IMG/VR virus record: IMGVR_UViG_2778261574_000002
Source of the DNA: a virus
Lineage: Duplodnaviria > Heunggongvirae > Uroviricota > Caudoviricetes
Direction: 5' to 3' (one strand)
Length of the DNA: 64,000 bases
Positions 4,967-51,496 of the stretch are shown one piece after another; within the stretch, counting starts at the first letter, position 1, and each line of letters begins with the position of its first letter. The notes under the pieces are model-generated. The model was not told where the DNA came from and ran no database searches. It saw nothing but the letters and a program-made list of their open reading frames with translations. A program made the position numbers and the translations under genes.

Positions 4967-5146
4967 TTATCTGCTGCCCGGCATTCTCTGTTTAAGCACA
5001 ACCATTTCCTGACGGCATAACACAGCAATAGCGGTCCTGGCACCAATTTGCTTACCAACCAGGTATTGCTTTACCTCGCGGCGACTCACGCCATCAAGAA
5101 GCATCTTTAACGCTCTACGGGACAATTTGTTGTATTTACGTGCCAT
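4967..5146 (-). CDS. small basic HTH-like protein
   Basis: 59 aa from an internal ATG (MARKYNKLSRRALKML..) preceded by GGAG; starts 5 nt after the doc stop. Confidence 0.4.
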   Translation of the reverse strand: MARKYNKLSRRALKMLLDGVSRREVKQYLVGKQIGARTAIAVLCRQEMVVLKQRMPGSR

Positions 5147-5150
5147 TGAT

Positions 5151-5531
5151 CTACTCCGCAGAACCATACAATCTACGTAACGTGGCGGCGACAGTAGATA
5201 CAGATATCTCTCCGGTCGCAGCCCCTACGGTAAGGTCTACCAGTTCAGGGGAGTCAAATACCTGCACCCCGTTACGGCGTAGAAATAACAGCGCACTGTT
5301 TAGCGCGGTACGCTTATTGGCATCATTGAATATATGCCCTCTCGCTGTAGCCACCAGGTAGGTGGCGGAGACTTCGAAAAGGTCGGTGATCTCTTCGTAG
5401 GCAACTCTGGCCTGAACTCTCCCGATAATGGCCTCTGCCCTACCCGGATCAGACATTCCCGGCAGGCCGCCGTAGCGGCTTATATTCGCATCATGAAGCG
5501 CAACAAGTTCTTCCGGTGATATATGTCTCAT
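5151..5531 (-). CDS. doc: Doc toxin (Fic-family)
   Basis: 126 aa, [36 protein letters not shown].. recognised as P1 Doc; start overlaps the phd stop (ATGA). Confidence 0.95.
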
Positions 5532-5752
5532 TATCGGTTAACCAGTTCCTTGTTGGTGGAGTCCAGGGTGTCAAACAGGGATGCAAATTCAGCATCCAGC
5601 GCCGCTTTTTTGTAGGCTTCGAAAGTAGCCTTGCTGACAATTACTGCTGGCTCACGGCCTCTGCGGGTGATTTCAACCTCTTCCCCGGCTTCAACATTGT
5701 TGAGCACTTCAGAAAGGTTGCCACGCGCGGTACGGAAGTTAATGGATTGCAT
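5531..5752 (-). CDS. phd: Phd antitoxin
   Basis: 73 aa from [39 protein letters not shown]..; recognised as P1 Phd; the ORF-track start at 5758 adds two residues. Confidence 0.95.
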
Positions 5753-5760
5753 AAACACCT

Positions 5761-5783
5761 CGTGTACTCGTTATGTGTACACA
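5761..5783. promoter_or_regulatory. candidate Phd/Doc autoregulatory operator (GTGTAC palindromes)
   Basis: CGTGTACTCG..TGTGTACACA immediately upstream of phd. Confidence 0.45.
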
Positions 5784-5824
5784 ATTATAAACTTCACAGG
5801 CATAAAGCACCAGCACTTTGCAGC

Positions 5825-6214
5825 TTAAATAACCGGACAATCATCAAATTCCCCACTTCGGGCATCATTGATGACATGAGTGATCACACCAAAAACAGCA
5901 TTACTGCCCGTGTATCCATCGTCATCTACTGGTAACGCCTCTTTCTTCCCGGTGCTTAAGTCCTCCAGGTGCTGGCGCGGATACTTCCTGTATCTCTTTA
6001 TGCGATATTCACCCTCCATAGCGCACACAAGCAGAGAACCATCAACCGGAGTAAGCGAGGAATCAACCACCAGCAAAGCTCCCTGCAATATTCCCTCACG
6101 GTGATGGCTATCAGCTGCCCGCATGAAGTAGGTCGCTGAAGGATGTCTAATTATCTGCTGATCAAGAGAAATTCGGCTTTCAACATAATCCGCCGCAGGA
6201 GAAGGGAAGCCCAT
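5825..6214 (-). CDS. humD: UmuD-like S24 peptidase (HumD-like)
   Basis: 129 aa; LexA/UmuD-type C-terminal domain (..GDSM-like region, ..YRIKRY..); LexA box 20 bp upstream. Confidence 0.8.
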   Translation of the reverse strand: MGFPSPAADYVESRISLDQQIIRHPSATYFMRAADSHHREGILQGALLVVDSSLTPVDGSLLVCAMEGEYRIKRYRKYPRQHLEDLSTGKKEALPVDDDGYTGSNAVFGVITHVINDARSGEFDDCPVI

Positions 6215-6234
6215 AGCGTTTTACCTCAATGATA

Positions 6235-6250
6235 CTGTTTATTCATACAG
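6235..6250. promoter_or_regulatory. LexA (SOS) box
   Basis: CTGTTTATTCATACAG (CTG-N10-CAG), embedded in TACTG..CAGTA, upstream of humD. Confidence 0.7.
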
Positions 6251-6337
6251 TATACATTGAAAAGGCATAGTTTGTGAAAGCGGGGTTTGTAGGCGCGCCA
6301 CGCTGGGGGCTAATCACATTTCTCCCCCATCTTGCCG

Positions 6338-6589
6338 TTATTTTTTTGGTGCATCCTCGTTCTGATACACCGGATCGCTCCCTTTTGGCAACTGGAGGCT
6401 TAACTGCCGGTAGTGCCGTAGCCGTTCCATGAAATAGGCGCGCAGGTTTTCCGGTTGCTCACGGGCCACCTGCTCTGCAATCACAGGTATATTCAGCCGT
6501 TCTTTGTAAGCAACGCCGCTGGCGGCAAGGTCTACGTTCACCTTGTCTCGCTCTTCCTGGCTTTTAGCTGCTATATTTCGATCTGACAC
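6338..6589 (-). CDS. hot: homolog of DNA polymerase III theta subunit (Hot-like)
   Basis: 83 aa; [39 protein letters not shown] resembles HolE theta. Confidence 0.8.
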
Positions 6590-6621
6590 AAGAAACCTCC
6601 AGGAGTTAGTGGATCAGGCAC

Positions 6622-6972
6622 ATGCACAATAACGTTCTCAATGTTAGCCGTTCAATTCAGACAATCAGAGACTGCACCAGTGTGGTGGCATCAATCCCAT
6701 TGCGAAACAGCATAGACGAACTGCAAATTCGTGTATTGAATCCGAATCAGGCTAATAAGCAATTGCGCTTTATTTTGACGCTGAAAAGTGAAACAGAGGG
6801 GATAAAGCACAGCGTAAAAGTGTTTTCTGAGGCCATTCTGCTTAATGGGAAGCTCCGGCATCTGGTAAGGCCAGAACGTCAATATCCTGACGTCCTGGCG
6901 CGTGAAAAAGACCTTCTTTCTGAAGTTCAGGATAGGGTGATCGATTTCGTCAAATGCTATCCCCTGCATTGA
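6622..6972 (+). CDS. hypothetical protein (strand assignment ambiguous)
   Basis: 116-aa ORF fully overlapping a 92-aa minus-strand ORF (6691-6969); + ORF has the more protein-like composition but a weak ribosome-binding site. Confidence 0.25.
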   Translation: MHNNVLNVSRSIQTIRDCTSVVASIPLRNSIDELQIRVLNPNQANKQLRFILTLKSETEGIKHSVKVFSEAILLNGKLRHLVRPERQYPDVLAREKDLLSEVQDRVIDFVKCYPLH

Positions 6973-7241
6973 GGGCAGGTGTTCCCTTCCGCAAAGTAGG
7001 GAAAATTGCTATCAAGTTCATCACACCATCTGCGATGGTCGTAGCACCAAAACGCCTCCCACGGTGCACGGAAATACTTCATCCACCAGGACACTCGATC
7101 AGGTATATCTGCTGGTGGCAGTTCTTCTGGCAATAATTTGCCTGATAATTCCCTTTCCGCCCGCGACAGCATTTTTTTGAGGCTCGCGTTCTCTTTTTCA
7201 AGCTCATCTACGCGCACCTGTAATTCAGCTTTCGTTGGCAT
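6957..7241 (-). CDS. hypothetical coiled-coil protein
   Basis: Internal start MPTKAELQVRVDELEKENASLKK with AGGTGG ribosome-binding site; overlaps the stop of the upstream gene. Confidence 0.4.
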   Translation of the reverse strand: MPTKAELQVRVDELEKENASLKKMLSRAERELSGKLLPEELPPADIPDRVSWWMKYFRAPWEAFWCYDHRRWCDELDSNFPYFAEGNTCPQCRG

Positions 7242-7875
7242 GGTCCACCTCATGCTTTTCAGCCACCAGCGGCAATAAAGCCCTGGCCATCTTATGAACC
7301 AATAGTGCATCAATAATGCCAAGCGTATGCCCCGGCTTAATGTTTAATGCCGCCTCAAGGCGACACCTTTCCAGGCCACTTTTCTCGGCTTGTTTATGAT
7401 GATCTGGTGTAATAACGTCGCCCAAAACACGGCTTATTCTTTCTCGTAATTGCTGGGTGCCAGCACACTTGATCGCTGTATCGTGGAGACGGTTAACCAG
7501 TTCGCGATAAACATGCGGCTTAATTCGGATACGTTCACCGGTGACGCCCTTTCCTGGTGCTGGCACCGAACTATCCGGAATATCCGGATAGTTGCCAGCC
7601 TCGTAAGCTACCCGCAGCCAGTGCATGAATGTTTCAGTGGACACACAACCACAGTCCACATCGATTTTCCCGCGTTGCTGTTCCAGCCAATGCTCAAAAT
7701 TCAATCTACACGTATTACTTTCATGTTGCTCTTTTTGTCTCAAGGCCAGCATCTGCTGGGCTATTTCCAATACTTCATCTGCCGTATATCCAGCACCGTG
7801 ACCATACATTTCGATACGGGAAATAATCTCTGATATGCGCTCTTCAGTGATTCTGGTCATTTCTTTTTGCGCCAT
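7225..7875 (-). CDS. hypothetical protein, 216 aa
   Basis: Long ORF on the operon strand; no recognisable motif. Confidence 0.5.
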   Translation of the reverse strand: MAQKEMTRITEERISEIISRIEMYGHGAGYTADEVLEIAQQMLALRQKEQHESNTCRLNFEHWLEQQRGKIDVDCGCVSTETFMHWLRVAYEAGNYPDIPDSSVPAPGKGVTGERIRIKPHVYRELVNRLHDTAIKCAGTQQLRERISRVLGDVITPDHHKQAEKSGLERCRLEAALNIKPGHTLGIIDALLVHKMARALLPLVAEKHEVDHANES

Positions 7876-8231
7876 TTCTTTTCACATTCCTTAGTCCATT
7901 TTTCAATGTTCATTTTGGCAATATCAGTCATTCCATCACCTAAGAAATACTTTTTCCGGTACGTCTTGCACTTAAACCACACTACAACAGCCACCAACCA
8001 GAAAATAAAAGGCCATACAGCAATACCAACTCCAGCCGCGATAAAGCCCAATAGCCATAAATGAAGCTCTCCAACTTCTGTTTGCGGCAATATTCTTAAA
8101 GAATTAAACAGCAGACTGAAGGAATGGTCGTATGCATTGGCGGTATAAGACATGCAATCCATATAATTAAAGTCATAGCCTGCGGCTGCCGCCCATAATG
8201 GGCGGTCAAGAAAATGTTTTAGTGTCATCAT
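7857..8231 (-). CDS. hypothetical membrane protein
   Basis: 124 aa; hydrophobic stretch LWLLGFIAAGVGIAVWPFIFWLVAVVVWF; AT-rich coding sequence. Confidence 0.45.
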   Translation of the reverse strand: MMTLKHFLDRPLWAAAAGYDFNYMDCMSYTANAYDHSFSLLFNSLRILPQTEVGELHLWLLGFIAAGVGIAVWPFIFWLVAVVVWFKCKTYRKKYFLGDGMTDIAKMNIEKWTKECEKKWRKKK

Positions 8232-8237
8232 ATAAAT

Positions 8238-8627
8238 TTAAGGTTCAGACCAGTTATCTTCAATAGCAATGCTTAATCTTTGTAGCCATTCTGCTAATTT
8301 CAGCATTGCTTCTCTTTCGCTTAAACCACGAGGAAAATCATCAAGCGAAATTGTTGGCTTGAAGCCCCCGTAATTATCCATTTCAACAGTCAGATTTTGC
8401 TCCAGCACGGTATTCCTTACGCGGCTATTGTGCCGAAGCAAATATACTGAACGTGATTTATTGGTTTTATGGTCAAACTGATATTCGGTAAGTATCATCT
8501 GGCTTTTGCCATGACTATTACCTCTCCACATACCTACCTCACTTAATAAAACAACTCCATGCGTAGTTGATGATTTTTTCCTACGTAATATAAATCTGCA
8601 CTCCGGCAGTAAAACCAAAGCCAACAA
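8238..8627 (-). CDS. hypothetical protein
   Basis: 129-aa ORF, start uncertain; AT-rich. Confidence 0.4.
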   Translation of the reverse strand: MLALVLLPECRFILRRKKSSTTHGVVLLSEVGMWRGNSHGKSQMILTEYQFDHKTNKSRSVYLLRHNSRVRNTVLEQNLTVEMDNYGGFKPTISLDDFPRGLSEREAMLKLAEWLQRLSIAIEDNWSEP

Positions 8628-8709
8628 TTGCTGAAAAAATCAAAACATTTACTTTTGACATTATAAATTTTCTCTCGGTGTCGTAGGTGATAGCACCATA
8701 ATTGATAAT

Positions 8710-8961
8710 TTAGTGAGTTAGCAGTTCCATTTTTTGGATGATTTCCGCATGAGCATCATCGTTATCAACACTTAACTCGTTTAATGCCTCTCGCACCACA
8801 TCAACTTCTTCTGGTTGGAAGAAATCATCTCGGTAGTCACCAAATAGAACCGAAACAAGCCTGCCACCAGCAACATCAAGATTGGCGCTAACAGGTGGCT
8901 CTTTGCCATCCTCAAATTCGACTACAAAAGTTATTTTTCCCATCGTTACCACCAGCGACAA
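8710..8961 (-). CDS. small acidic hypothetical protein
   Basis: ~80 aa (MGKITFVVEFEDGKEPP..). Confidence 0.4.
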   Translation of the reverse strand: MSLVVTMGKITFVVEFEDGKEPPVSANLDVAGGRLVSVLFGDYRDDFFQPEEVDVVREALNELSVDNDDAHAEIIQKMELLTH

Positions 8962-9028
8962 ATTGAATACAAACCCAGTGCTGCCGCCATCACAATTCCT
9001 ACCGTTGCGAATGCTTCAGGCCAGCTCG

Positions 9029-9361
9029 TTATCTCACCTCCAGTCTCCATACCGCCTGACCAATCCGGCTGGCATGGGTATCTTTGGATACTGTTCCGTC
9101 TTTAGCCATCTCCATAAGAATTTTGCGCAAATCTGCCGAACGCCATTCTTCATCAGGAAATTCCTTCTCCATTGCCAACCGCAGATTCCAGGTTGCCATC
9201 CTGAATGGATATTCCCCGCCGAGAGCTTTATCTTGCAGGGCAGCCCGGGAACGCATCACCTGCAAAACCTTCTCTTTTACATTCATCATTTCGCCTCCTG
9301 CGGCGGTTCTGGTAGCGGCATCCAGTGTGACGGTTTCCACGACGCACCAGGAATTATCCAA
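9029..9361 (-). CDS. hypothetical protein
   Basis: 110-aa ORF; overlaps the 3' end of the upstream gene. Confidence 0.4.
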   Translation of the reverse strand: MDNSWCVVETVTLDAATRTAAGGEMMNVKEKVLQVMRSRAALQDKALGGEYPFRMATWNLRLAMEKEFPDEEWRSADLRKILMEMAKDGTVSKDTHASRIGQAVWRLEVR

Positions 9362-10401
9362 CCATCATTAGCGTCAGGATACCCCGGTATGTAAGTCGCC
9401 CATTTCATTCGCCAGTCACCTTTCCTATCAAACTCCCTGGCAACAAGAACGGCTGTTTTGCTATCCGGCATTCGCTCACTACAGCTTATCCAACCATCCG
9501 GAGTTACCGGAACTTGCGGAATGGCTGTCTGCTCTCGAACGTCATTAGGCGCTATAGGTTCTGCTGCCAACTGACTGGCATATTTGTTAATGGTAACGAT
9601 AAGCTCTTGCTCGGCCTCATCCAGACAATCACCGATACCTCGCCTGTCACCGTCAAAATCATCGAAATCGGCACGAATCTTGGCAACCTCCTGGATTGCG
9701 GACAACACTTCACCAGGAATAAGCCGAGAGTTGCCCGATAGTGCATTCTGCTCCAGTGATGCTTTTACAAACCACGCTGCCTGAACTATAACGCCATGAA
9801 TCCAGCGCAAATCAGCATCGCGATCTTTCTTTTTCATCTTTTCGCCACTTAAGGCCTTGCTTATGTGGCTGCGTACCAGGTCTTCATGTAATTCCTTCGC
9901 CTCCTCAATGGTGAAACCACCAGGCAGAAGAGCCGGAGTTACCGGAGAGCTGGTTGACGCTTCCGGGATTTCCCGAAAATTATTGGTTGACGAATTCTTG
10001 CTTTCCCGAAAGTTTCCGGACTGAAGCATGGCGGTGCGGCAGGCGTTCCATATTTCGGCAGCAATATCGCGCTCGCTATCGGTTAATTTGTACGTGGAAA
10101 CATAGCCAGAGAGCATTTCTACGTTTTCCGGAGTTGCTTCTTCCGGCACTACCGGCGCTGGCGGGGCGATGCGTCCAAGCAACTTATTTACCTCTTTCGC
10201 CATCGCGTCATATTTATCTAAATGGCGATTAGCTTCTAAGCAGACTCGGCGCATCTGATCTGAGTTAACTCGTTTAACTGGATCTGCTTCCAGCGATGCC
10301 AGCGCAATCCGTGCCAGTTCCATTTGTTCACCACGGGTAAGCCCGTTTTCAAGCGGATTTTTAATGAACAATTCAATACGTTCTTTGGTAATAGTGGTCA
10401 T
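9286..10401 (-). CDS. hypothetical protein with DUF551-like C-terminus
   Basis: 371 aa; C-terminal ..WKPSHWMPLPEPP; shares an internal module (APPxPVVPEE..WNACRxAMLQ) with the 11114-11509 product. Confidence 0.55.
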   Translation of the reverse strand: MTTITKERIELFIKNPLENGLTRGEQMELARIALASLEADPVKRVNSDQMRRVCLEANRHLDKYDAMAKEVNKLLGRIAPPAPVVPEEATPENVEMLSGYVSTYKLTDSERDIAAEIWNACRTAMLQSGNFRESKNSSTNNFREIPEASTSSPVTPALLPGGFTIEEAKELHEDLVRSHISKALSGEKMKKKDRDADLRWIHGVIVQAAWFVKASLEQNALSGNSRLIPGEVLSAIQEVAKIRADFDDFDGDRRGIGDCLDEAEQELIVTINKYASQLAAEPIAPNDVREQTAIPQVPVTPDGWISCSERMPDSKTAVLVAREFDRKGDWRMKWATYIPGYPDANDGWIIPGASWKPSHWMPLPEPPQEAK

Positions 10402-10411
10402 GTGTTACTCC

Positions 10412-10675
10412 TTAACCCGCAGTGCTTTCAACTGATGAGGGGAACAAAATCTTTTCATCAAACCCTGCATTCATATCATGAACAGCAACACACCAATCCA
10501 TCGACGAACGATTATCAAGAGCCTCCATGATTTCATCCATGCGGCGTAGGTCATACAGGTAAATGCTTTTATCGCCAATGGTGTAAAAGCCAATTTTTTT
10601 CGGTGATGGACAGCGATCAAGAACTTCCTGTAATTCGTTCAACCATGCCCGTTCTTTTTTTGTCAAAGTTGCCAT
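10412..10675 (-). CDS. hypothetical protein
   Basis: 87 aa from MATLTKKERAWLNELQ with AAGGAAAA ribosome-binding site; starts 1 nt after the upstream stop. Confidence 0.45.
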   Translation of the reverse strand: MATLTKKERAWLNELQEVLDRCPSPKKIGFYTIGDKSIYLYDLRRMDEIMEALDNRSSMDWCVAVHDMNAGFDEKILFPSSVESTAG

Positions 10676-10676
10676 A

Positions 10677-10895
10677 TCAGTTTTCCTTATACGGATTAAT
10701 TTTATTGTGCAGTGTGTTGAACGACGCCCATACCACGTCGTTATACAATTCAATAACTGGTTCAATTATTTTCCCGATTGCCCAGACAAAAATTAGCGGG
10801 GATATCGGTATCATCAACACGATAAACAGAATGAGAAACAAAAGTTCTGTCGCTCTACTTTTTCGCGGATATTCTTTTCTGAATAATGTAGGCAC
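10677..10895 (-). CDS. small membrane protein (GTG start)
   Basis: 72 aa; hydrophobic LLFLILFIVLMIPISPLIFVWAIG; preceded by AAAGGAGAGTGAT. Confidence 0.4.
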   Translation of the reverse strand: MPTLFRKEYPRKSRATELLFLILFIVLMIPISPLIFVWAIGKIIEPVIELYNDVVWASFNTLHNKINPYKEN

Positions 10896-10896
10896 A

Positions 10897-11112
10897 TCAC
10901 TCTCCTTTGTTGCTTCTCAAAATTTTATGCCCTGGCGCAAAAGCACGCGTTTTGTCGACGCTTATTCGCCACCCATCTTTACGTGCCTCTTTTGCACAGC
11001 CAGCCCATGACGTACCGATATACTCACCGAAGTCTGGCACTGGATATACACCTTCCGTACACTGGCGGCAGTCACAATAGAGATGCATGGTGTAACTTGC
11101 GGCAATAGCCAT
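10897..11112 (-). CDS. Cys-rich hypothetical protein
   Basis: 71 aa from MAIAASYTMHLYCDCRQCTEG; preceded by the recurring AAAGGAGAGTGAT junction. Confidence 0.45.
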   Translation of the reverse strand: MAIAASYTMHLYCDCRQCTEGVYPVPDFGEYIGTSWAGCAKEARKDGWRISVDKTRAFAPGHKILRSNKGE

Positions 11113-11113
11113 A

Positions 11114-11509
11114 TCACTCTCCTTTACCCTGAAGCATGGCGGCGCGGCAGGCATTCCAGCCTCTCACCTCTGCAATAGCGGCAACAGCATCGACCGCGTA
11201 CATTTTAAGAGGGTTAGGCATTGGTTTTTCTTCAGGTACTACTGGCACTGGAGGGGCGGCATAAACAGGAATAACGTCCGCTTGCTCTTTATTACTTTCA
11301 TCCGTTAAAGCCCAGAATAATTTCCCGGCCGGATGTTTGAAAATATAAGCAACTGGTTCTGCGCTATCAGCTTCGCGCCGCTTCTGTAGCTCTGCTGCCA
11401 TTGCTCTCACGACTTCAACTGGTGCCCTTGCAGCAAACTCTATGTTGGTGATCAGCTCATTAAGATATTGCTCGCTGGGATACTGTTTCTTATTGGTAAT
11501 AGTGATCAT
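11114..11509 (-). CDS. hypothetical protein
   Basis: 131 aa; ATG overlaps the upstream stop (ATGA); shares a module with the 9286-10401 product. Confidence 0.5.
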   Translation of the reverse strand: MITITNKKQYPSEQYLNELITNIEFAARAPVEVVRAMAAELQKRREADSAEPVAYIFKHPAGKLFWALTDESNKEQADVIPVYAAPPVPVVPEEKPMPNPLKMYAVDAVAAIAEVRGWNACRAAMLQGKGE

Positions 11510-12021
11510 GCCGCGTTTCCTTCTTTCTTATTAACAATTACACCGTCATATATTTCATTAAGGTGCCCTCTCAACTCCATGCGCCTTAATGCAGATAACA
11601 TGTAATCGCATTCAACCTGCTTATTCCCGGTAAATGGCTTATCGTCAGGATTACCCCAACAGCAATTACCCGTGGGCCATCCATGTACTTTCCGTACTCT
11701 TCCGTTAACAACGTGAAGTAATCCCCAGCCGGGAGGTAAATCCTCAATTGAAATAATTCCCGGCTCACTAATAAAGAATCGCCAGTCGCCCATGCCAAGT
11801 GAGGGATTTTTACGGAAACGCTTTTTTCTATCTGCCAACAAGTCAGCACGAGAACACTTCGCCTCTATCAGGCATGATGCTGAATTTCTGAATCCCATAG
11901 CATCTGGCTGTTCTCCGGTACTGGTTACAGCAACAAAGCGGTCATGAAAGCAAACCTTGAACCCGTTGCGCTTAAGGAACTTGTACGCAATCTGACAGAG
12001 TTCGTGGTGTGTTAACGCCAT
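11506..12021 (-). CDS. PD-(D/E)xK nuclease-like protein
   Basis: 171 aa from MALTHHELCQIAYKF; D..EAK motif (..DAMGF..CLIEAKCS..); preceded by AAAGGAGAGTGAT. Confidence 0.5.
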   Translation of the reverse strand: MALTHHELCQIAYKFLKRNGFKVCFHDRFVAVTSTGEQPDAMGFRNSASCLIEAKCSRADLLADRKKRFRKNPSLGMGDWRFFISEPGIISIEDLPPGWGLLHVVNGRVRKVHGWPTGNCCWGNPDDKPFTGNKQVECDYMLSALRRMELRGHLNEIYDGVIVNKKEGNAA

Positions 12022-12022
12022 A

Positions 12023-12583
12023 TCACTCTCCTTTGATGCGAATGCCAGCGGCGCGGGAATCATTCCATCGCTTTACTTCTTCACGAATTACGTCAATGCA
12101 TTCTTTCGAATCCATTAGGTAATCTTCATCAAAAAGACGTTCCTGTTCGTTTTCTATCGCAACAATGATTGCTTCAACTAACTTTTGTTCCTGAGAATCA
12201 CTTTCTAACTCTGCTATGCGCTTACTCCCATCCGAGATAACACCTTCGTAATATTCACGCTGTTCGTTGAGTTTTGATTTTGTCTCCTCAAGCTCAACGC
12301 GCAGCTTCCCTACCGTTAGCGCAATATCCTCGTTCTCCTGGTCGCGGCGTTTTATGTATTGCTGGTTTCTTTCCCGTTCATCCAGAAGCGCCAAGACGGT
12401 AGCCGGATTGGCTGCGGCGATGAATTCAGCATCACGAGATTCGTTTTCACTGAACACCATAGCTATTTGCTCATGGTTTATGCCGTCAGTGGAGTAAATC
12501 TCATCGTCGAATTCAACAGCCCACTTACCTTTCGTAGCCTTCTCTGCCGCCTCACGCAGTGCCTGATAGTCAATCTTGCTCAC
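12023..12583 (-). CDS. Ea22-like protein (paralog 1)
   Basis: GTG start after AAAGGAGG, overlapping the upstream TGA; N-terminal ..SKIDYQALREAAEKATKG and AEFIAAANPATVLALL motifs. Confidence 0.5.
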   Translation of the reverse strand: MSKIDYQALREAAEKATKGKWAVEFDDEIYSTDGINHEQIAMVFSENESRDAEFIAAANPATVLALLDERERNQQYIKRRDQENEDIALTVGKLRVELEETKSKLNEQREYYEGVISDGSKRIAELESDSQEQKLVEAIIVAIENEQERLFDEDYLMDSKECIDVIREEVKRWNDSRAAGIRIKGE

Positions 12584-13281
12584 TGGTTGCCTCCTTTGCG
12601 AATCTGTTCCGCCCATTCTTCAAGGGATTTCTCCGCATATTCACCGGACAGGCCATCAATCGGGTACGGTTCATTAGCCAACTCTTCTTTCGCTGACAGA
12701 ATCATGCGCGTAACGTCGAAAACTTCACGCAAAGACTTATTGATAAATCCGTGATTGAACGCAGCAGCAAGACGGCTGGCGGTATAGTTAATCCCCTCGT
12801 TGCGTGCTTCCGCACGAATTTCAGCCAGAAAAGCATCGGTAGCTGGAGTTTCGCTGTGGTGTAGGGCATCGTTGATAATCATTGCAGCAACTCCGGCCTG
12901 CCCTGCATCCGTGACCGACACATGATCAAGAGTTACAGCCATTGCGTGTTTCAGCCCAGCGTTCTCTGCCACCAGAGCCGCGAGCTTAGTCTCAAGCGGT
13001 GCTATTCGGCACATAGCATCAATATTTGTGTCCTCCAGGCGCTTAATTTCACCAAGTAGCTCCAGTGCAACCTTTGGGTTGAATGCGGCAATATAACGAG
13101 CGTTGTTCTCTGCGTTTTTCAGTCCATCAAAGCCGGTCCATTTGATAACGTCTTCACATCGTTTATCACCGGGCGTATGCACCGCATACGTACCAGTACC
13201 CGGCGAAATAAATGCGACCCATTCGCCCTGTGTTGCCTGTTTTGCTATCTCACGCAGTGCCCGGTAATTAATTTCGCTCAC
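12580..13281 (-). CDS. Ea22-like protein (paralog 2)
   Basis: GTG start after AAAGGAGG, overlapping the upstream TGA; ..SEINYRALREIAKQATQG and ARYIAAFNPKVALELL motifs. Confidence 0.5.
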   Translation of the reverse strand: MSEINYRALREIAKQATQGEWVAFISPGTGTYAVHTPGDKRCEDVIKWTGFDGLKNAENNARYIAAFNPKVALELLGEIKRLEDTNIDAMCRIAPLETKLAALVAENAGLKHAMAVTLDHVSVTDAGQAGVAAMIINDALHHSETPATDAFLAEIRAEARNEGINYTASRLAAAFNHGFINKSLREVFDVTRMILSAKEELANEPYPIDGLSGEYAEKSLEEWAEQIRKGGNQ

Positions 13282-13517
13282 TGGCTGCCTCCTTTGCGGA
13301 GTTGCGCTTCGATGCACGAAAAAAAAGACTCCCGAGTATGACTGTTAAGAGCTGGTGCGAACGCCGCGTTAAGAACGGCAGCATCACAGCCGTCATCAAT
13401 ATAGAGCGCAATTTTTTTCTCCAGGCGCGCTTTGGCTTGCTGCAACTGCATACCCCGGCACGCACGCGGGATATAATCAGCAATTTGAGCGATAGCTTTT
13501 TCGTTCTGTTTAAACAT
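13278..13517 (-). CDS. hypothetical protein
   Basis: 79 aa; C-terminus ..QLRKGGSQ encodes the next gene's ribosome-binding site. Confidence 0.45.
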   Translation of the reverse strand: MFKQNEKAIAQIADYIPRACRGMQLQQAKARLEKKIALYIDDGCDAAVLNAAFAPALNSHTRESFFSCIEAQLRKGGSQ

Positions 13518-13713
13518 GCTTCACCTCGATAGGCTTGATGGTGTCTAACAGCAGTCGACGGCGCGTATTTTCTGCAAAGTGGCGGCGTCCGGTATCTTTG
13601 TGGTAAAACTCATTTTTGCCGACGACCCACATCCGCTCTGTTTGGTGCAGTTTTTTTACCTGCGGCCCGTCTTTGGTGATCACGGTGCCGGTATGGGTTT
13701 TTACGATTGTCAT
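13510..13713 (-). CDS. hypothetical protein
   Basis: 67-aa ORF on the operon strand. Confidence 0.4.
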   Translation of the reverse strand: MTIVKTHTGTVITKDGPQVKKLHQTERMWVVGKNEFYHKDTGRRHFAENTRRRLLLDTIKPIEVKHV

Positions 13714-13796
13714 GCCACTACCTCTTCGAACAGATGAACGAGACAGGCCGATGTTCGTCCACCTGAAAAACTGACGATTTGATGCATACTCACGGT

Positions 13797-14525
13797 TTAT
13801 TCCTGAATGCGCTTAAACTCGATTACCCACACCCAGGGATTAGCGTTCCAGCTTTCTTCACCATAGATGGATTCCCACAGGCGCTGGAACGCAACCTTGG
13901 CCATTGCGAAATCCCCCTTGGGAGTAAGGAATGTTCCCGGGTGATCAGGAAGCAAACTTCCAGCAGGCGGAACGCCCTCAGCCCTTGCATCGCATTCGCT
14001 GATATCGTTCAACCGTTCAACGCGCACGTTGGTAATTTCCAACAGAATGCGTGATGCCCATCGCGGCATGTGAATTGATGGACGCCACCCACCATCAAAC
14101 TTTTCATTCACAGTGTGAGGTTTCCAGTCGGCATCATCGGGTATCGACCATAAGCCGTAATCACCAGGTTTTTGCTCGCAACTGGCCCGATAAATCCTTG
14201 CTGCGTTCTTCTCATCGCCACGACAAAGGTTGTCGTTCCAGTCCACACTGCAACCATCCTCATTGCCTAATATCGCCCATGTTTCACGAACCCAAATTCG
14301 ATCGCCGACGATACCAAATGGGCAATTGAAAACACTGCTTACACCATCAGCCCCGTACCACTGAAAACCTGCACCAATTTTTCTAACCATCACTGGTGCT
14401 TCTGGACCAACTTCCGCAGGCTGATTTTTCATTATCCGCCGCGTCTGCGTTTTCCTTCCTTCGAGGATGGCCCGGACCATCTCATCGTTAAAAATCATGC
14501 CGCGCTCTTTCACTTCGCCTTTCAT
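13797..14525 (-). CDS. ASCH-domain-like protein
   Basis: 242 aa; N-terminal MIFNDEMVRAILEGRKTQTRR resembles the ASCH fold signature. Confidence 0.5.
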   Translation of the reverse strand: MKGEVKERGMIFNDEMVRAILEGRKTQTRRIMKNQPAEVGPEAPVMVRKIGAGFQWYGADGVSSVFNCPFGIVGDRIWVRETWAILGNEDGCSVDWNDNLCRGDEKNAARIYRASCEQKPGDYGLWSIPDDADWKPHTVNEKFDGGWRPSIHMPRWASRILLEITNVRVERLNDISECDARAEGVPPAGSLLPDHPGTFLTPKGDFAMAKVAFQRLWESIYGEESWNANPWVWVIEFKRIQE

Positions 14526-14649
14526 GCATCCCCCTTACCCATGTGCGACGATGCCGCCAAAAGTGATAGAGAACAGCCAGAAATAGATCGCGGCCATAAT
14601 GATTTTGAATGCCGTGTTCATATTTTCAGCTCCTGTGATTGATTGGATA

Positions 14650-14680
14650 CATGCCGCGCCTTGCGGCATGTTTTTATTTT
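14650..14680 (+). terminator. hairpin plus T-tract (plus-strand orientation)
   Basis: CATGCCGC-GCCTT-GCGGCATG followed by TTTTTATTTT. Confidence 0.45.
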
Positions 14681-14703
14681 CACTTTCTCTGTTTTAAAAA
14701 TCA

Positions 14704-14720
14704 AGATTTATTAGAGCAAT
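14704..14720 (-). promoter_or_regulatory. C1 operator-like 17-mer (16/17)
   Basis: AGATTTATTAGAGCAAT on the + strand. Confidence 0.55.
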
Positions 14721-15226
14721 TATTGTTGGTGGAGAAGCGCGTTTTCATACTCCCTGACCATTAACGTAAGTACGCCGTGACTCCTGAAAACACGCGCCAC
14801 TTCAATCTTATCTTCCAGCGCGAACGCAATTTTACTTAGACCAATTTTCTTCAGGAGATCAATCTTTGCTGGACCGTCATTTCTGTCATCGGTGGCAGGA
14901 CGCATAGATAGCAAAGGCTCAGCCCCATTTGTTACGTGCTTACGCAACCAGGCTCGTGTTTTATCCCTGGCTATCTCACAGCGCCCGGTTACAAACCAGA
15001 GGGTGTAAATGCCGGACAACTGGCGCACCATATCAATAACTGGAGTGATGGGAGCATCAGTGTCACAGGCAAGGTTAAACTCGTTCCAGTGCTCTGTTAA
15101 TGCACCTTTGCCAGGTGGTGGAAGTAAATGCAGCCTGTCTTCCGTTGCCTCTGATATCGTCCCATCAATATCTACTATGACGATGTACGGACGTTCCTGG
15201 TGTGCGTGTTTATTGAAAATACTCAA
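14720..15226 (-). CDS. HAD-superfamily phosphatase-like protein
   Basis: 168 aa; DxDGT motif (IVIVDIDGTIS) near the N-terminus. Confidence 0.55.
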   Translation of the reverse strand: MSIFNKHAHQERPYIVIVDIDGTISEATEDRLHLLPPPGKGALTEHWNEFNLACDTDAPITPVIDMVRQLSGIYTLWFVTGRCEIARDKTRAWLRKHVTNGAEPLLSMRPATDDRNDGPAKIDLLKKIGLSKIAFALEDKIEVARVFRSHGVLTLMVREYENALLHQQ

Positions 15227-15298
15227 ATGCCCTCCTCATTGGACGAAAAAAATGCTGGTGGGCGCACTCCACCAGCATTAAATGTGACACTGTAACTA

Positions 15299-16561
15299 TC
15301 AGCGAACGTAAATAGTGCCGCCGTTCTCTTTTTCCCATGCATCGCTACGTGCATAGCAAACATCGAGAAGTCTTCTTGCCGCAGTTTCCTCTAAACCCAA
15401 TTCAACAACCAACTGCTCATGACGGCGGGTAACTACATCAAATAGGCTATGCAGCCCTTTATTGGCCAGTTCATCAATGAATTCCGGTTCGAACGGCAGC
15501 TCTACCTCTGCCAACATAACCTCTTGCGCCCACTCAACTCGACGGACCAGTTCCGGGCGGCGGCTTTCCATCTCTTTACAGATCAATTCATGGAAGAACT
15601 CTACCCAACCTTCCGGCTGGAACTCGCGGAAAATGGCCAACGGCTGGAAGTTTGGCATCAACCATTCGTTGATCCGGATATCAATGGCATAGCCCATGTC
15701 GCAGCAGAACTGATAAGCAAAGTCCAGCTTAGAAACGATATAAGGACGCTCGTTATTGAACTCTTTAGGCGATGAGATCCCATAAGCCAGGAGGCGCGGG
15801 AAGAAGGAGATTTGCCCTAACGTCGGATGAAGTTTGCTTGCAGGGAAACGGCGCTCAGTAATGCCATACATTTCCTTCTTGAGCGTCGCAAATTTGGCAT
15901 TCTCATTAACCAGCGCGGTAACCTCTGCTTTTTTATTAGCAAATGCCACGCGCGCTTCGCTTGCATCTTTAATAGTTTTTTTGAGCTGTTGGTTAAGGTC
16001 GGCGACCTGCTTACGCAGTTCCTGTCGCTCGCTTTTAGCTTTGTTATAGCGTTTCTCAAGGTTAAAAGGATCAAGTTTCATGATCTCTTTATATTGAGAT
16101 TTTAGCGTTGAAATCTGTGAGTTCCGCAGTTCAACCATCGCGGTCATTTCATTGAGTTTTGTTTCCAGCTCAATGCTTATACGTTCGGCATTATCAGCAC
16201 GCTGGTTGGCGTCATGCGTCGCATCGTCGATCGCGTCCTGTTGCTGGCGTTTCAAATGTTCAATTTGCAGCTGAAGCTCTTCAATTTCTTTACCCTTCAG
16301 ACCGAGATCCAACTGCATATTTTCAGCTGCATCTACCAGGGAGTTATGGCTATCAGCTTCTGCGTTATAAACATCAATAAGCTGTGCGTGAAGCATCTCC
16401 GCTGACTGAACCGCATTATCAAAAAAACGTGCTGTGAGGTCATCACAACTAACGCGGCGTTGCGCGGCCCGGATGTTCTGGATAATGGCCGGGATACCGG
16501 CATTCAGGACATCAGGGATAGATACATTTTCGATTGATTGGTTTTGTGCTGAAGTGCTCAT
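15299..16561 (-). CDS. hypothetical protein with N-terminal coiled coil
   Basis: 420 aa; heptad-rich, Q/E/K-rich N-terminal half. Confidence 0.5.
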   Translation of the reverse strand: MSTSAQNQSIENVSIPDVLNAGIPAIIQNIRAAQRRVSCDDLTARFFDNAVQSAEMLHAQLIDVYNAEADSHNSLVDAAENMQLDLGLKGKEIEELQLQIEHLKRQQQDAIDDATHDANQRADNAERISIELETKLNEMTAMVELRNSQISTLKSQYKEIMKLDPFNLEKRYNKAKSERQELRKQVADLNQQLKKTIKDASEARVAFANKKAEVTALVNENAKFATLKKEMYGITERRFPASKLHPTLGQISFFPRLLAYGISSPKEFNNERPYIVSKLDFAYQFCCDMGYAIDIRINEWLMPNFQPLAIFREFQPEGWVEFFHELICKEMESRRPELVRRVEWAQEVMLAEVELPFEPEFIDELANKGLHSLFDVVTRRHEQLVVELGLEETAARRLLDVCYARSDAWEKENGGTIYVR

Positions 16562-16562
16562 T

Positions 16563-16781
16563 TCAAAGTTCCGTATTAGCTTGTGCTTCGGTCATTTTTC
16601 CTAAGTATGAAGGAGGAAGGACTACGCAATTTGTATCCAGTCCCTCACCTATGGCAGCCTGTAAAATTCTGGCTAAGGTGAGTCTCTTGTTGCGATACTT
16701 GGTGATGACATGCCTGATACCGCCGGTCGGCGTAACAAAGGCGATCAGCCAGTAGTGATATTTCCGTCGGAATGGCCACAT
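16563..16781 (-). CDS. small hypothetical protein
   Basis: 72-aa ORF between the operator pair and the 420-aa gene. Confidence 0.3.
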   Translation of the reverse strand: MWPFRRKYHYWLIAFVTPTGGIRHVITKYRNKRLTLARILQAAIGEGLDTNCVVLPPSYLGKMTEAQANTEL

Positions 16782-16795
16782 AGTGCACCTTGTAG

Positions 16796-16861
16796 ATTGC
16801 TCTAATAAAAAACGTGATGAGTGTACATCACGTTTTAAAAATATGGAATTATTAGAGCAAT
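16796..16861. promoter_or_regulatory. inverted pair of C1 operator-like 17-mers flanking a palindrome
   Basis: ATTGCTCTAATAAAAAA (16796-16812) and GGAATTATTAGAGCAAT (16845-16861), with AACGTGATGAGTGTACATCACGTT between them. Confidence 0.5.
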
Positions 16862-16868
16862 ATTATTC

Positions 16869-17564
16869 TTATTCTCGCTCAAAAAACGAGCTAATAAGGG
16901 GAAGCCAATCCTCTGACACTTCGCGAGGTCGCGGTTTGCCGTGGAAAAAGATTATTCGGCAGTCCTTTGGTAATGCCCCATTCCCCCTGGAGTAACGCGC
17001 GCTCGCATATTTTGAACCAGGTTCCACAACATCGGCCTTGTAACTTACAAACCATCCTGGATACAGATCCTGAAATGCTGGTGTATCATCGCCCATAACC
17101 TTCCGTAAGAACCCCTGATCACCCCAGCACTCAGTAGTGACACAACGAGAAATCCAACCTTCCGGATCTTGCCAGAATGAACTCCAGATATGCGCTTTTA
17201 CACTATTTGGTATCCACAGGGCACCGCTACCACGATATTGTGGATGGTAAAAATCCCTAAGCATGGTGAAGCTGGTTGGTGGATTCTCAAGGATTGGGCG
17301 TATATCACCGGCAATAACTGTGTCCAAATCCAGATAGAACAGATCATCTGTTATATCCGGTCGGAACAACTCGATTTTCGCCCACCAGCCACGGCACTTT
17401 TGCCACTGGTTGATCAATGGGACAACTTTGACGCCAGGTACATGTAAACGCTTCAGGTCTGTCAGGCAAATAATTTCATAGCCTTTTGGCAGTTGATTAA
17501 CCAGCCACTGCACATCGGAAGCGTTATAGTCACCACCAGAGCGAAAAACTAAAGCAATCTTCAT
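16869..17564 (-). CDS. hypothetical enzyme with DxD-like motif
   Basis: 231 aa; [11 protein letters not shown] suggests a nucleotide-sugar transferase-type fold; stop overlaps the next start. Confidence 0.45.
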
Positions 17565-18253
17565 GCTGCACCATCACCTTTCACTTTCATCAATGTCAGG
17601 TTTCCGCAAAATACGGCACCAGTGTCGATATACTGCTGATTCCAGAATGTCTTCGGGCTTTTCACCGGAGTGTGACCAAAGATAAAACGATCTGCGCCCG
17701 AAATTTCGCCACCAATATCATCCATCGAATCACTGATACGCTCGCGCGCCCAGACAACGTTGAAAAGCGGCACCTCCTTACCGAATTGGTATTCATTATC
17801 CGGATAGTCGGCATGGGCTATAACGATAGTTTCTTGCCCGGTGTTCAACTCAATGATATAGGGCAGACGCTTTACCAGCTCCACCAGCGCCCAGGCTAAT
17901 ATTTCCTGATCAGTGTCCAGCATGAAGAACCATTGTCCGCCATTCATTAGCCAGTTATTCACGTTGCCATCTGGACTTAACGCATCAATCATCAGCCGCT
18001 CATGGTTCCCCATCACTGCCCTGAACCAGGGCATCTGCAATAGTTCCAGACATTCGACATTTTCAGTACCGCGATCGATAAGGTCGCCGACCGATATCAG
18101 TAAATCCTGCGCCGGGTCAAAATCCACACGATGGAGTTCGGACATCAGTCTGGTGTAGCAACCATGCAGATCACCAACAACCCAGACATTCCTGTATTTG
18201 GTACCGTCGATACGGTGATAAATTGTGGGTGCCATCATGTATTCTTCAGCCAT
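17561..18253 (-). CDS. ppp: Ser/Thr protein phosphatase (calcineurin-like metallophosphoesterase)
   Basis: 230 aa; GDLHG, GDLIDRG and GNHE motifs. Confidence 0.75.
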
Positions 18254-18861
18254 TCTTTAAGAGTCATCTGCGGAATACCTCCCATTTTCCCGCATGAAAC
18301 AACGTCAATCTGTTCACGCGCAGACTGGAATAACAAAGGCAGGTGACTTAGATTTTTTGGCGTGCCGCCGGAGTGAACGCGTGGTTCTTGTGTAGCGTCA
18401 ACGCCCACCAGGGCGACATGTTTGAATCCGATATGGAAAGCCAGGTTCAGAGCGCCATATGCACTATTGCCGCTGGCAATTTCATTCTCATCTTCGCAAA
18501 GTCCGAAATGTGCGGACCAGCGCCACGCCCACCACTCGGGAGAATTCGTATTTTTTGGCTCCATGCCACGTTCAGCCACACGACGGAAGCACAGAACGCC
18601 GTCTCTGACTTCACGTTCTTTAACATCGGGTAGTGCCATGCAATAACAAACACCACGGCGACGGCGGCCACGACCAACGCGCCGCATATTGTCTGGCGAT
18701 GGATCAAGTGTGAAAAAATAAGAAGCGCGGTTCAGCCAGTCGATGGCCCCATTGACCGCTATAATCGGCACTCCGCGCGGCGCAACAAAGTTTGCGGCGC
18801 TTGGGCCACTGCCGACGATAATAACGCGATCACTGCCTCTAAATTTATTCTTGGGAAACAT
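18235..18861 (-). CDS. Rossmann-like protein with GSGPS motif (paralog A)
   Basis: 208 aa; [20 protein letters not shown]. Confidence 0.5.
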
Positions 18862-49814: not shown

Positions 49815-49831
49815 AAATTTATTAGAGCAAA
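49815..49831 (-). promoter_or_regulatory. C1 operator-like 17-mer (16/17)
   Basis: AAATTTATTAGAGCAAA on +; upstream of kilA. Confidence 0.6.
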
Positions 49832-51479: not shown

Positions 51480-51496
51480 AAATTTATTAGAGCATT
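51480..51496 (-). promoter_or_regulatory. C1 operator-like 17-mer (16/17)
   Basis: AAATTTATTAGAGCATT on +; upstream of the antirepressor operon. Confidence 0.6.

Follow-up and report, generated by a model that had tools for sequence, protein, structure and literature searches.

The region described here spans positions 13797 to 15226 of a window of 64,000 nucleotides (nt), the whole stretch of DNA that was analyzed, taken from a tailed-phage record (Caudoviricetes; IMG/VR IMGVR_UViG_2778261574_000002). It is the P1-like pap/OpmgT (former Op88)/pmgT region, and the host element is an Escherichia coli P1-like phage-plasmid of the IncY type. A Megablast search with 13300-15700 returned P1-like phages at 96 to 98% DNA identity, and one with 5000-24000 returned IncY plasmids of about 95 kb that match over 87 to 93% of length. 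Against P1 itself (AF234172), the interval 13831-15700 is 97 to 98% identical, and the homologous stretch of that record is annotated with pmgS, pap, the monovalent C1 operator OpmgT (former Op88), the predicted sigma-70 promoters P1pmgT and P2pmgT, and pmgT. The P7 record carries the same operator at the homologous position. Eight hypervariable regions are recognized in P1-like phage-plasmids, among them the block pmgT-humD (PMC9603915), and according to a genome-wide CRISPRi screen P1 needs neither pap nor pmgT for its lytic growth (PMC10695390). The locus is known in outline already, as P1 pap-Op88-pmgT, and what we add is modestly new: a conserved gene for a predicted membrane peptide that is absent from the P1 reference, a hairpin that is conserved in position, and an ASCH/YqfB-like identity for PmgT. 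The neighboring genes in the window are all on the minus strand, and the region itself contains the following, including a very short open reading frame (the micro-ORF) and two Shine-Dalgarno (SD) sequences.

13797..14525, minus strand: PmgT-like protein, 242 aa, with an ASCH fold, the predicted second cistron of the C1-controlled operon (assigned from fold and motif)
14530..14536, minus strand: SD sequence AAGGGGG of the PmgT-like gene (read from the sequence)
14535..14621, minus strand: micro-ORF of 28 codons plus stop, MNTAFKIIMAAIYFWLFSITFGGIVAHG, ATG at 14621-14619 and TAA at 14537-14535 (read from the sequence)
14630..14646, minus strand: conserved box CCAATCAATCAC (14646-14635), then the SD sequence AGGAG (14634-14630) (conservation across lineages)
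14649..14671, no strand assigned: hairpin ACATGCCGC-N5-GCGGCATGT, 10 pairs, 6 of them G-C (terminator scan and conservation)
14672..14681, plus strand: T-tract TTTTATTTTC, which would complete a plus-strand intrinsic terminator (terminator scan)
14676..14704, minus strand: predicted sigma-70 promoter (P1pmgT), -35 TTGATT at 14704-14699, 17-nt spacer, -10 GAAAAT at 14681-14676 (P1 record and promoter scan)
14704..14720, minus strand: C1 operator ATTGCTCTAATAAATCT (P1 OpmgT, former Op88), overlapping the pap stop codon and abutting the -35 (consensus match and P1/P7 annotation)
14720..15226, minus strand: pap, a predicted stand-alone HAD phosphatase of 168 aa with a TTG start (PF25109 and the DIDGT motif)

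Five of these features had been recognized in a preliminary description of the sequence, namely an ASCH-like protein, a DxDGT phosphatase of the HAD type, a hydrophobic 28-codon micro-ORF with a ribosome-binding site, a hairpin with a T-tract oriented for the plus strand, and an operator-like 17-mer, and all five are present where that description had put them. For comparison with relatives, about 84 P1-group loci were fetched via Pap; variation in the micro-ORF was counted in 87 loci, and variants of the hairpin and T-tract were counted over 159 loci, which are partly duplicated between two scans. Four lineages were compared: the P1 group, Cronobacter phage JK004, L172, and L173/L174. The JK004 lineage comes from one phage record, with a Pap about 70% identical to the P1-type protein, and L172-L174, which came from a protein-database search with peptide alignment, are P1-like Logan contigs with the same gene order. 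A search via Pap for relatives at intermediate distance gave two close relatives only among species-representative genomes and the P1 group only in PLSDB and IMG/VR.

The 17-mer ATTGCTCTAATAAATCT matches the 17-bp asymmetric consensus of the P1 C1 operator, ATTGCTCTAATAAATTT, at 16 of 17 positions. The site is also preserved in JK004 and L172-L174, and its P1 homolog is named a C1-controlled operator in the P1 record. By its match and its alignment with the annotated OpmgT/Op88, the operator-like 17-mer at 14704-14720 is assigned as a C1 operator. Matches to this consensus number 10 in the window, compared with 0.43 expected by chance. The others include an overlapping divergent pair at 31137-31164, a pair before pmgR at 16796-16861, and sites at 34670-34686, 49815-49831, and 51480-51496, and such multiplicity is expected for a P1-type immunity network. 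The geometry of the adjoining promoter is constant as well, and in the window TTGATT begins on the last base of the operator. In all four lineages a -35 of the form TTG(A/T)TT starts from operator position 16 and is followed by a 17-nt spacer and a -10 of the form NANAAT, and the stem of a hairpin begins 4 to 7 nt past the -10 element. The predicted start site, at about 14669, would accordingly lie at the foot of that hairpin. Because the stem starts so close behind a conserved -10, the mRNA most likely begins with the hairpin.

A scan for terminators in the 2-kb region found two sites compared with 2.2 expected, and since that count does not exceed chance, the scan by itself proves nothing; the evidence for the hairpin is its conservation. 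The four lineages carry it at the same position in differing sequences with compensatory changes, as seen from their 5' and 3' arms.

P1 group: ACATGCCGC / GCGGCATGT
JK004: GGCCGC / GCGGCC
L172: GGCAGTCAC / GTGACTGCC
L173: GGCGGTCGC / GTGACCGCC

Between L172 and L173 the stem shows a compensatory change from A-T to G-C. The L173 stem also contains a G.U pair that can form on the gene strand only, where the local fold reaches -24.0 kcal/mol, versus -17.2 kcal/mol on the opposite strand. Five stem variants occur within the P1 group: a G.U pair is preserved on the gene strand in three of them and on the opposite strand in one, and in the fifth the pairing is broken on both. No U-tract follows the hairpin on the gene (minus) strand, where UAUCCAAUC comes next, and the minus-strand sequence after it reads TATCCAATC, which gives the shape of a terminator for the plus strand only; there the stem at 14649-14671 runs into TTTTATTTTC. 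The T-tract, TTTTATTTTCAC, is identical in 133 of the 159 P1-group loci of the partly duplicated sample. JK004 and L172-L174 lack it, with tails that read GGTGAGTATTATT and AAATGATTCTG, yet hairpin, SD box, and small ORF are all retained in these lineages. A role of the hairpin in stabilizing the mRNA is suggested by its position, and the simplest reading of the P1-group form is that it may double as a plus-strand terminator that stops convergent transcription of cargo short of pap and the structural genes. In the window itself the terminator role would be idle, because every neighboring gene is on the minus strand; no transcription unit in the window runs into it, and among relatives a convergent hsdR-type gene does so in 23 of about 84 loci (27%).

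Downstream of the hairpin, the micro-ORF has the AGGAG 8 nt upstream of its ATG, and the composite CAATCAC-GGAGC of box and SD is invariant in the four lineages amid diverged flanks, making these the most conserved non-coding bases of the spacer. The CCAATCAATCAC box occurs once in the window, and a search of the window for further copies or complements, as would befit the target of a c4-like trans-acting RNA, found none beyond chance. The micro-ORF is intact in 82 of the 87 P1-group loci. Homologs of 53 aa occupy the equivalent place in JK004 (immediately behind pap and the operator), L172, and L173/L174, with M1, K6, A11, W15, and a Y or F at position 13 in common, and the N-terminal 21 residues can be aligned across all forms of the peptide (MNTAFKIIMAAIYFWLFSITF, MHLIFKLAITAFYAWMLTVVI, and MQVLIKLAVTAFFVWLFSVAV) even where the DNA has strongly diverged. 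Comparison of the three 53-codon forms gives dN/dS values of 0.22, 0.25, and 0.39 for the annotated frame, in each case the lowest of the six frames. The ORF is annotated neither in the P1 reference nor by PGAP; phage SJ46 has a 44-codon version labeled "membrane protein." We rejected the longer start used there (14669), as its ATG lies in a hairpin arm, has no SD sequence, and has no counterpart in the distant lineages. Neither Pfam, PHROGs (matches with E values up to 10 were noise only), nor PADLOC offers a family for the peptide, and PADLOC defense models matched neither of the two peptide types nor Pap nor the PmgT-like protein. On the conservation of its frame and start context, we think it likely that the micro-ORF is a real gene for a small single-pass membrane protein, the first cistron behind the C1-controlled promoter; its translation and membrane location are predicted from the sequence. 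The SD sequence of the PmgT-like gene, AAGGGGG, overlaps the micro-ORF stop and the gap to the next ATG is 9 nt, so translational coupling of the two cistrons is possible. In JK004-type relatives, the stop of the small ORF overlaps the next start as ATGA.

What follows the micro-ORF differs widely among relatives. In the approximately 84 P1-group loci, a gene begins at the pmgT ATG in 57 and a convergent hsdR-type ORF is found in 23; another junction occurs in 1, and in 2 the break falls inside micro-ORF codon 20. The convergent ORF encodes at least 739 aa on the opposite strand, ends 82 nt from the micro-ORF stop, and is annotated as HsdR in an IncY plasmid. In these 23 hsd-carrying loci the micro-ORF is the sole ORF behind the operator, and among the lineages compared such cassettes occur in the P1 group only. 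Since the varied modules follow the micro-ORF stop, the conserved unit consists of pap, operator, hairpin, SD sequence, and micro-ORF, with the ASCH gene as exchangeable cargo. On the upstream side of the operator pap is retained, and many relatives have other cargo in place of the ASCH gene on the downstream side; the two are not conserved as a pair.

Several side observations concern this border. Recombination junctions at or inside the 3' end of the micro-ORF (L060, L080; proteins P0122-P0145) have produced chimeric tails behind constant residues 1 to 18. In JK004-type elements the gene after the small ORF (L089 3745-4059; L173 3159-3473) encodes 104 aa with weak matches to MarR/TrmB-like winged-helix proteins, not ASCH. 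About 280 conjugative or mobilizable IncF plasmids contain an 84-bp relic that takes in most of the micro-ORF and is 98.8% identical to window positions 14531-14614 (L005 and L006, 3001-3084). A type I hsdR lies 76 nt before this relic and IS1 truncates it, in agreement with remarks in the P1 record on R124/3 and EcoDXXI. The placement of the relic between hsdR and IS1 suggests that the IncF hsd cassette was once in a P1-like element. On the cargo side of the window, P1 homology stops near 13831 and lambdoid-like cargo genes lie beyond. Stx2a-converting and other lambdoid phages match positions 13300-13730 at 94% DNA identity, and this stretch adjoins ninC/PAPS-reductase-like genes, so that a lambdoid early-region cassette lies inside the P1 variable region.

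Taken as a whole, we lean toward reading this interval as a promoter-operator under C1 repression (OpmgT, former Op88), from which the accessory, hypervariable operon of a P1-like phage-plasmid begins. Along the minus strand, the order would be pap ending in the C1 operator, the sigma-70 promoter, the stem-loop, the box and SD sequence, the 28-codon peptide, and the ASCH protein. In the lysogen, C1 bound to the operator would block the promoter, and derepression would allow the small peptide to be produced and the cargo genes that follow to be expressed. The stem-loop at the 5' end of the mRNA would protect the transcript against decay that depends on the 5' end. In the P1 group, the A run upstream of the stem-loop would make it an intrinsic terminator for the opposite strand, which could keep convergent transcripts that arise in the variable region from entering pap and the structural operons.

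Several observations weigh against this interpretation. The promoter hexamers are weak (8 of 12 matches), and the second promoter predicted in the P1 record, P2pmgT, would add about 12 nt of unpaired leader before the stem; the published P1vir RNA-seq gives no strand- or site-level data for this interval. The counts of hairpin variants are small and come from loci partly duplicated between the two scans, and the dN/dS comparison across lineages is based on three sequences of 53 codons only. Within the P1 group, the micro-ORF has 4, 5, and 5 variable sites at first, second, and third codon positions, with no excess at the third; 6 of its changes are synonymous and 9 are non-synonymous, which is not how a typical gene varies. 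Many chimeric C-termini of the peptide exist, and for this reason the short P1-type peptide may be under weak protein constraint. Finally, the ASCH assignment is without significant support at the level of sequence, and one-third of the model on which it draws (residues 81 to 155) has a pLDDT below 50.

The flat distribution of variation over codon positions also feeds the alternative that survives best, according to which the micro-ORF is not a gene. The stretch 14531-14648 would then be conserved as a homology arm or junction for cargo recombination, or as an untranslated leader, and its open frame would be incidental. Junctions to at least four downstream modules at or inside the 3' end of the ORF, the two loci broken at codon 20, the many chimeric tails, and the lack of an annotation by PGAP or in the curated P1 record and of any family match are all in keeping with this. 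It is a serious rival, though the less likely explanation: the same start context and N-terminal transmembrane motif persist in lineages with strongly diverged DNA, the frame has the lowest dN/dS of the six in all three comparisons, the SD and box stand out from the rest of the spacer, and few P1-group loci have lost the ORF. Variation at third positions is lower in the micro-ORF (5 of 28) than in pap (69 of 168; P = 0.02), whose variable sites in the same loci fall 23/11/69 by codon position. This may reflect homogenization by recombination at the module border or an extra constraint at the nucleotide level.

Going beyond a membrane protein as such, one may suppose that the 28-aa peptide has a function of its own as a membrane effector repressed by C1. 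It might, for instance, be toxic, serve in exclusion, or modulate a membrane protein of the host, with coupling to hsdR antisense transcription where hsd is carried. We consider this stronger proposal quite unlikely at present. If it were true, the peptide would be the first product of the accessory operon upon derepression and one missing from the P1 reference annotation. In a quarter of P1-like plasmids the 3' untranslated region of hsdR would then run antisense across the peptide gene to the shared hairpin-terminator, and expression of restriction enzyme and peptide would be coupled by sense-antisense interference. A link to T4 Stp/PrrC-type RNA damage and repair, prompted by the combination of a small peptide, type IC hsd, and a PNKP phosphatase, was considered and dropped, as no sequence evidence for it was found.

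The mixed orientation of the features had been taken in the preliminary description to hint at antisense or attenuation control. In its antisense form, a small plus-strand RNA starting in or just below the micro-ORF would end at 14649-14681 and pair with the mRNA of a toxic hydrophobic peptide, as in a type I toxin-antitoxin system. A small hydrophobic ORF with a strong SD sequence and a canonical opposite-strand intrinsic terminator just beyond its 5' end fit this picture, and the plus-strand fold of 14531-14690 has a z-score of -3.2, derived mostly from the terminator hairpin; the reduced third-position variation could likewise stem from a second constraint at the nucleotide level. What is missing is a promoter. 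The best plus-strand candidate within 350 nt has 7 of 12 matches, a score reached by 457 of 500 shuffled sequences, and because the differing cargo modules join straight after the ORF stop, an antisense promoter would need to sit inside the 87-nt ORF, where none is seen. The more distant lineages retain ORF and hairpin but lack the T-tract, which is a P1-group feature. A search of Rfam with both strands of 13400-15400 gave as its best match GcvB over the terminator, at 20 bits against a threshold of 42, and no toxin family of Pfam, PHROG, or PADLOC was matched. We regard an antisense toxin-antitoxin arrangement as very unlikely. As to attenuation, in which translation of the micro-ORF would govern hairpin formation and thus whether transcription reads on into the ASCH gene, the promoter and the first long gene are indeed separated by a short ORF and a stable hairpin (local segment, -17 kcal/mol), but the hairpin is upstream of the micro-ORF and neither within nor after it, the gene strand beyond it has no U-tract, no alternative pairing of the ORF region stands out (z-score of -1.6 for the gene-strand fold of 14515-14690), and the micro-ORF lacks a run of regulatory codons, so that this mechanism is hardly credible. 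With no plus-strand promoter found and no U-tract on the gene strand, neither an antisense RNA gene nor attenuation is supported here. A limited antisense idea survives for relatives only, namely the hsd-carrying P1-group loci, in which hsdR would be transcribed antisense across the micro-ORF before reaching the terminator.

Turning to the proteins on either side of the C1-controlled promoter, the identity of the PmgT-like protein as ASCH-like is supported by fold and motif. The protein belongs to PHROG 874, for which no function is assigned in PHROG, and some of its homologs carry the NCBI label "ASCH domain-containing." It has no match in Pfam or NCBIfam, and phmmer and profile searches against the PDB were non-significant; because sequence searches gave nothing significant, the matter was settled by fold. 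The AlphaFold2 model, built from a 34-sequence alignment, has a mean pLDDT of 64.7 and is confident in its core (residues ~10 to 80 and 156 to 240), and the insertion at 81 to 155 is unreliable. The predicted fold is that of an ASCH domain, with PH0355, EF3133, PF0470, the E. faecalis ASC-1 homolog, and Zymomonas ASCH named with the model. The activity of the ASCH-domain enzyme YqfB requires Lys21, Thr24, Arg26, and Glu74 (PMC6972931). In an hhalign comparison, K25, T28, and R30 of the PmgT-like protein fall in register with K21, T24, and R26 of YqfB, in what is a weak alignment of 22 columns (pairwise E value, 0.005; probability, 7.6%). This K25-x-x-T28-x-R30 motif is invariant or nearly so across the PmgT-like family, and the equivalent of Glu74, assigned by eye only, would be E183. 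The model and the motif support the view that PmgT is an ASCH/YqfB-like rather than a "morphogenetic" protein; its enzymatic function is putative. The insertion of about 75 aa in the ASCH core (window 14061-14285), with a pLDDT of 31 to 46, ranks with the best-conserved stretches of the family (LGNEDGC, AARIYRASCEQ, and WRPSIHMPRWASR, with C92, C116, and H152 invariant), and could act in metal coordination or as a binding module.

Pap, upstream of the operator, is by its sequence a HAD protein of the PNKP-phosphatase family. It scores 44.1 bits against Pfam PF25109 (HAD_PNKP; cutoff, 27.6; E value, 3e-11) and 6e-56 against PHROG 415, and its motif I (DxDxT) reads D19-I-D21-G-T23 and is invariant in the window, P1, and JK004. 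Approximately 1,000 phage homologs exist, about 980 of them at 33 to 40% identity. Most are stand-alone proteins of T1-like and KP36-like phages that are about 40% identical to Pap, and the phosphatase half of the T4-type Pnkp is about 33% identical. The phosphatase profile spans the 168 aa almost from end to end, and no P-loop kinase domain or match to a kinase family was found in Pap, so that labels such as "polynucleotide kinase" and "3'-phosphatase, 5'-polynucleotide kinase" are unjustified; the P1 record calls it a putative acid phosphatase. The protein is presumably an active phosphatase. In the preliminary description the two proteins were taken to suggest RNA or nucleotide processing, and the assignments do make nucleic-acid or nucleotide chemistry plausible. 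On its upstream side pap is flanked by a further feature.

15251..15279, minus strand: predicted intrinsic terminator between the pmgS stop (15299) and the pap TTG start (15226) (terminator scan)

This terminator lies 25 nt before pap, which is placed between it and the C1 operator, and an equivalent layout is found in Cronobacter phage JK004 (L089 2929-2952).

P1 is a classical model phage and also a widespread plasmid-prophage with resistance and defense cargo. As we read it, this interval marks where the most variable cargo region of P1 has its fixed left border, and it would also act as the switch that controls that region. The corrections proposed here should be useful for annotation, for the engineering of P1 vectors, and for knowing which products come first once C1 repression is lifted; they do not overturn the current understanding of P1.

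Individual parts of the region have likenesses to known systems. Type I toxin-antitoxin systems such as Ibs/Sib and Hok/Sok combine a small hydrophobic toxin with a cis-antisense RNA, and the 28-aa hydrophobic ORF with an opposite-strand terminator by its 5' end resembles them. It differs from them in that the micro-ORF would be the repressor-controlled first cistron of an operon and in that no antisense promoter was found. In E. coli, 5'-terminal stem-loops such as that of the ompA 5' untranslated region protect mRNA from 5'-end-dependent attack by RNase E. The hairpin described here is likewise predicted to lie within a few nt of the transcription start and keeps its position relative to the -10 in four lineages, but in the P1 group it also has a terminator-like T-tract on the other strand. 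Pap shares the DxDGT signature and PF25109 with the phosphatase domain of T4 Pnkp, which unlike Pap is bifunctional, with an N-terminal kinase. YqfB of E. coli, an ASCH-domain N4-acetylcytidine amidohydrolase (PDB 9kyf; PMC6972931), has 103 aa compared with 242 aa in the PmgT-like protein and is without the latter's two insertions (~35 to 65 and 81 to 155); there is no significant global sequence match, and the counterpart of its His70 is apparently an Asp. The locus as a whole resembles P1 OpmgT/Op88. PmgT has 309 aa in P1, versus 242 aa in the window, and micro-ORF and hairpin go unannotated in the P1 record, but the two loci agree in position, in a near-identical operator that overlaps the pap stop codon, in the promoter hexamers, and in the flanking genes.

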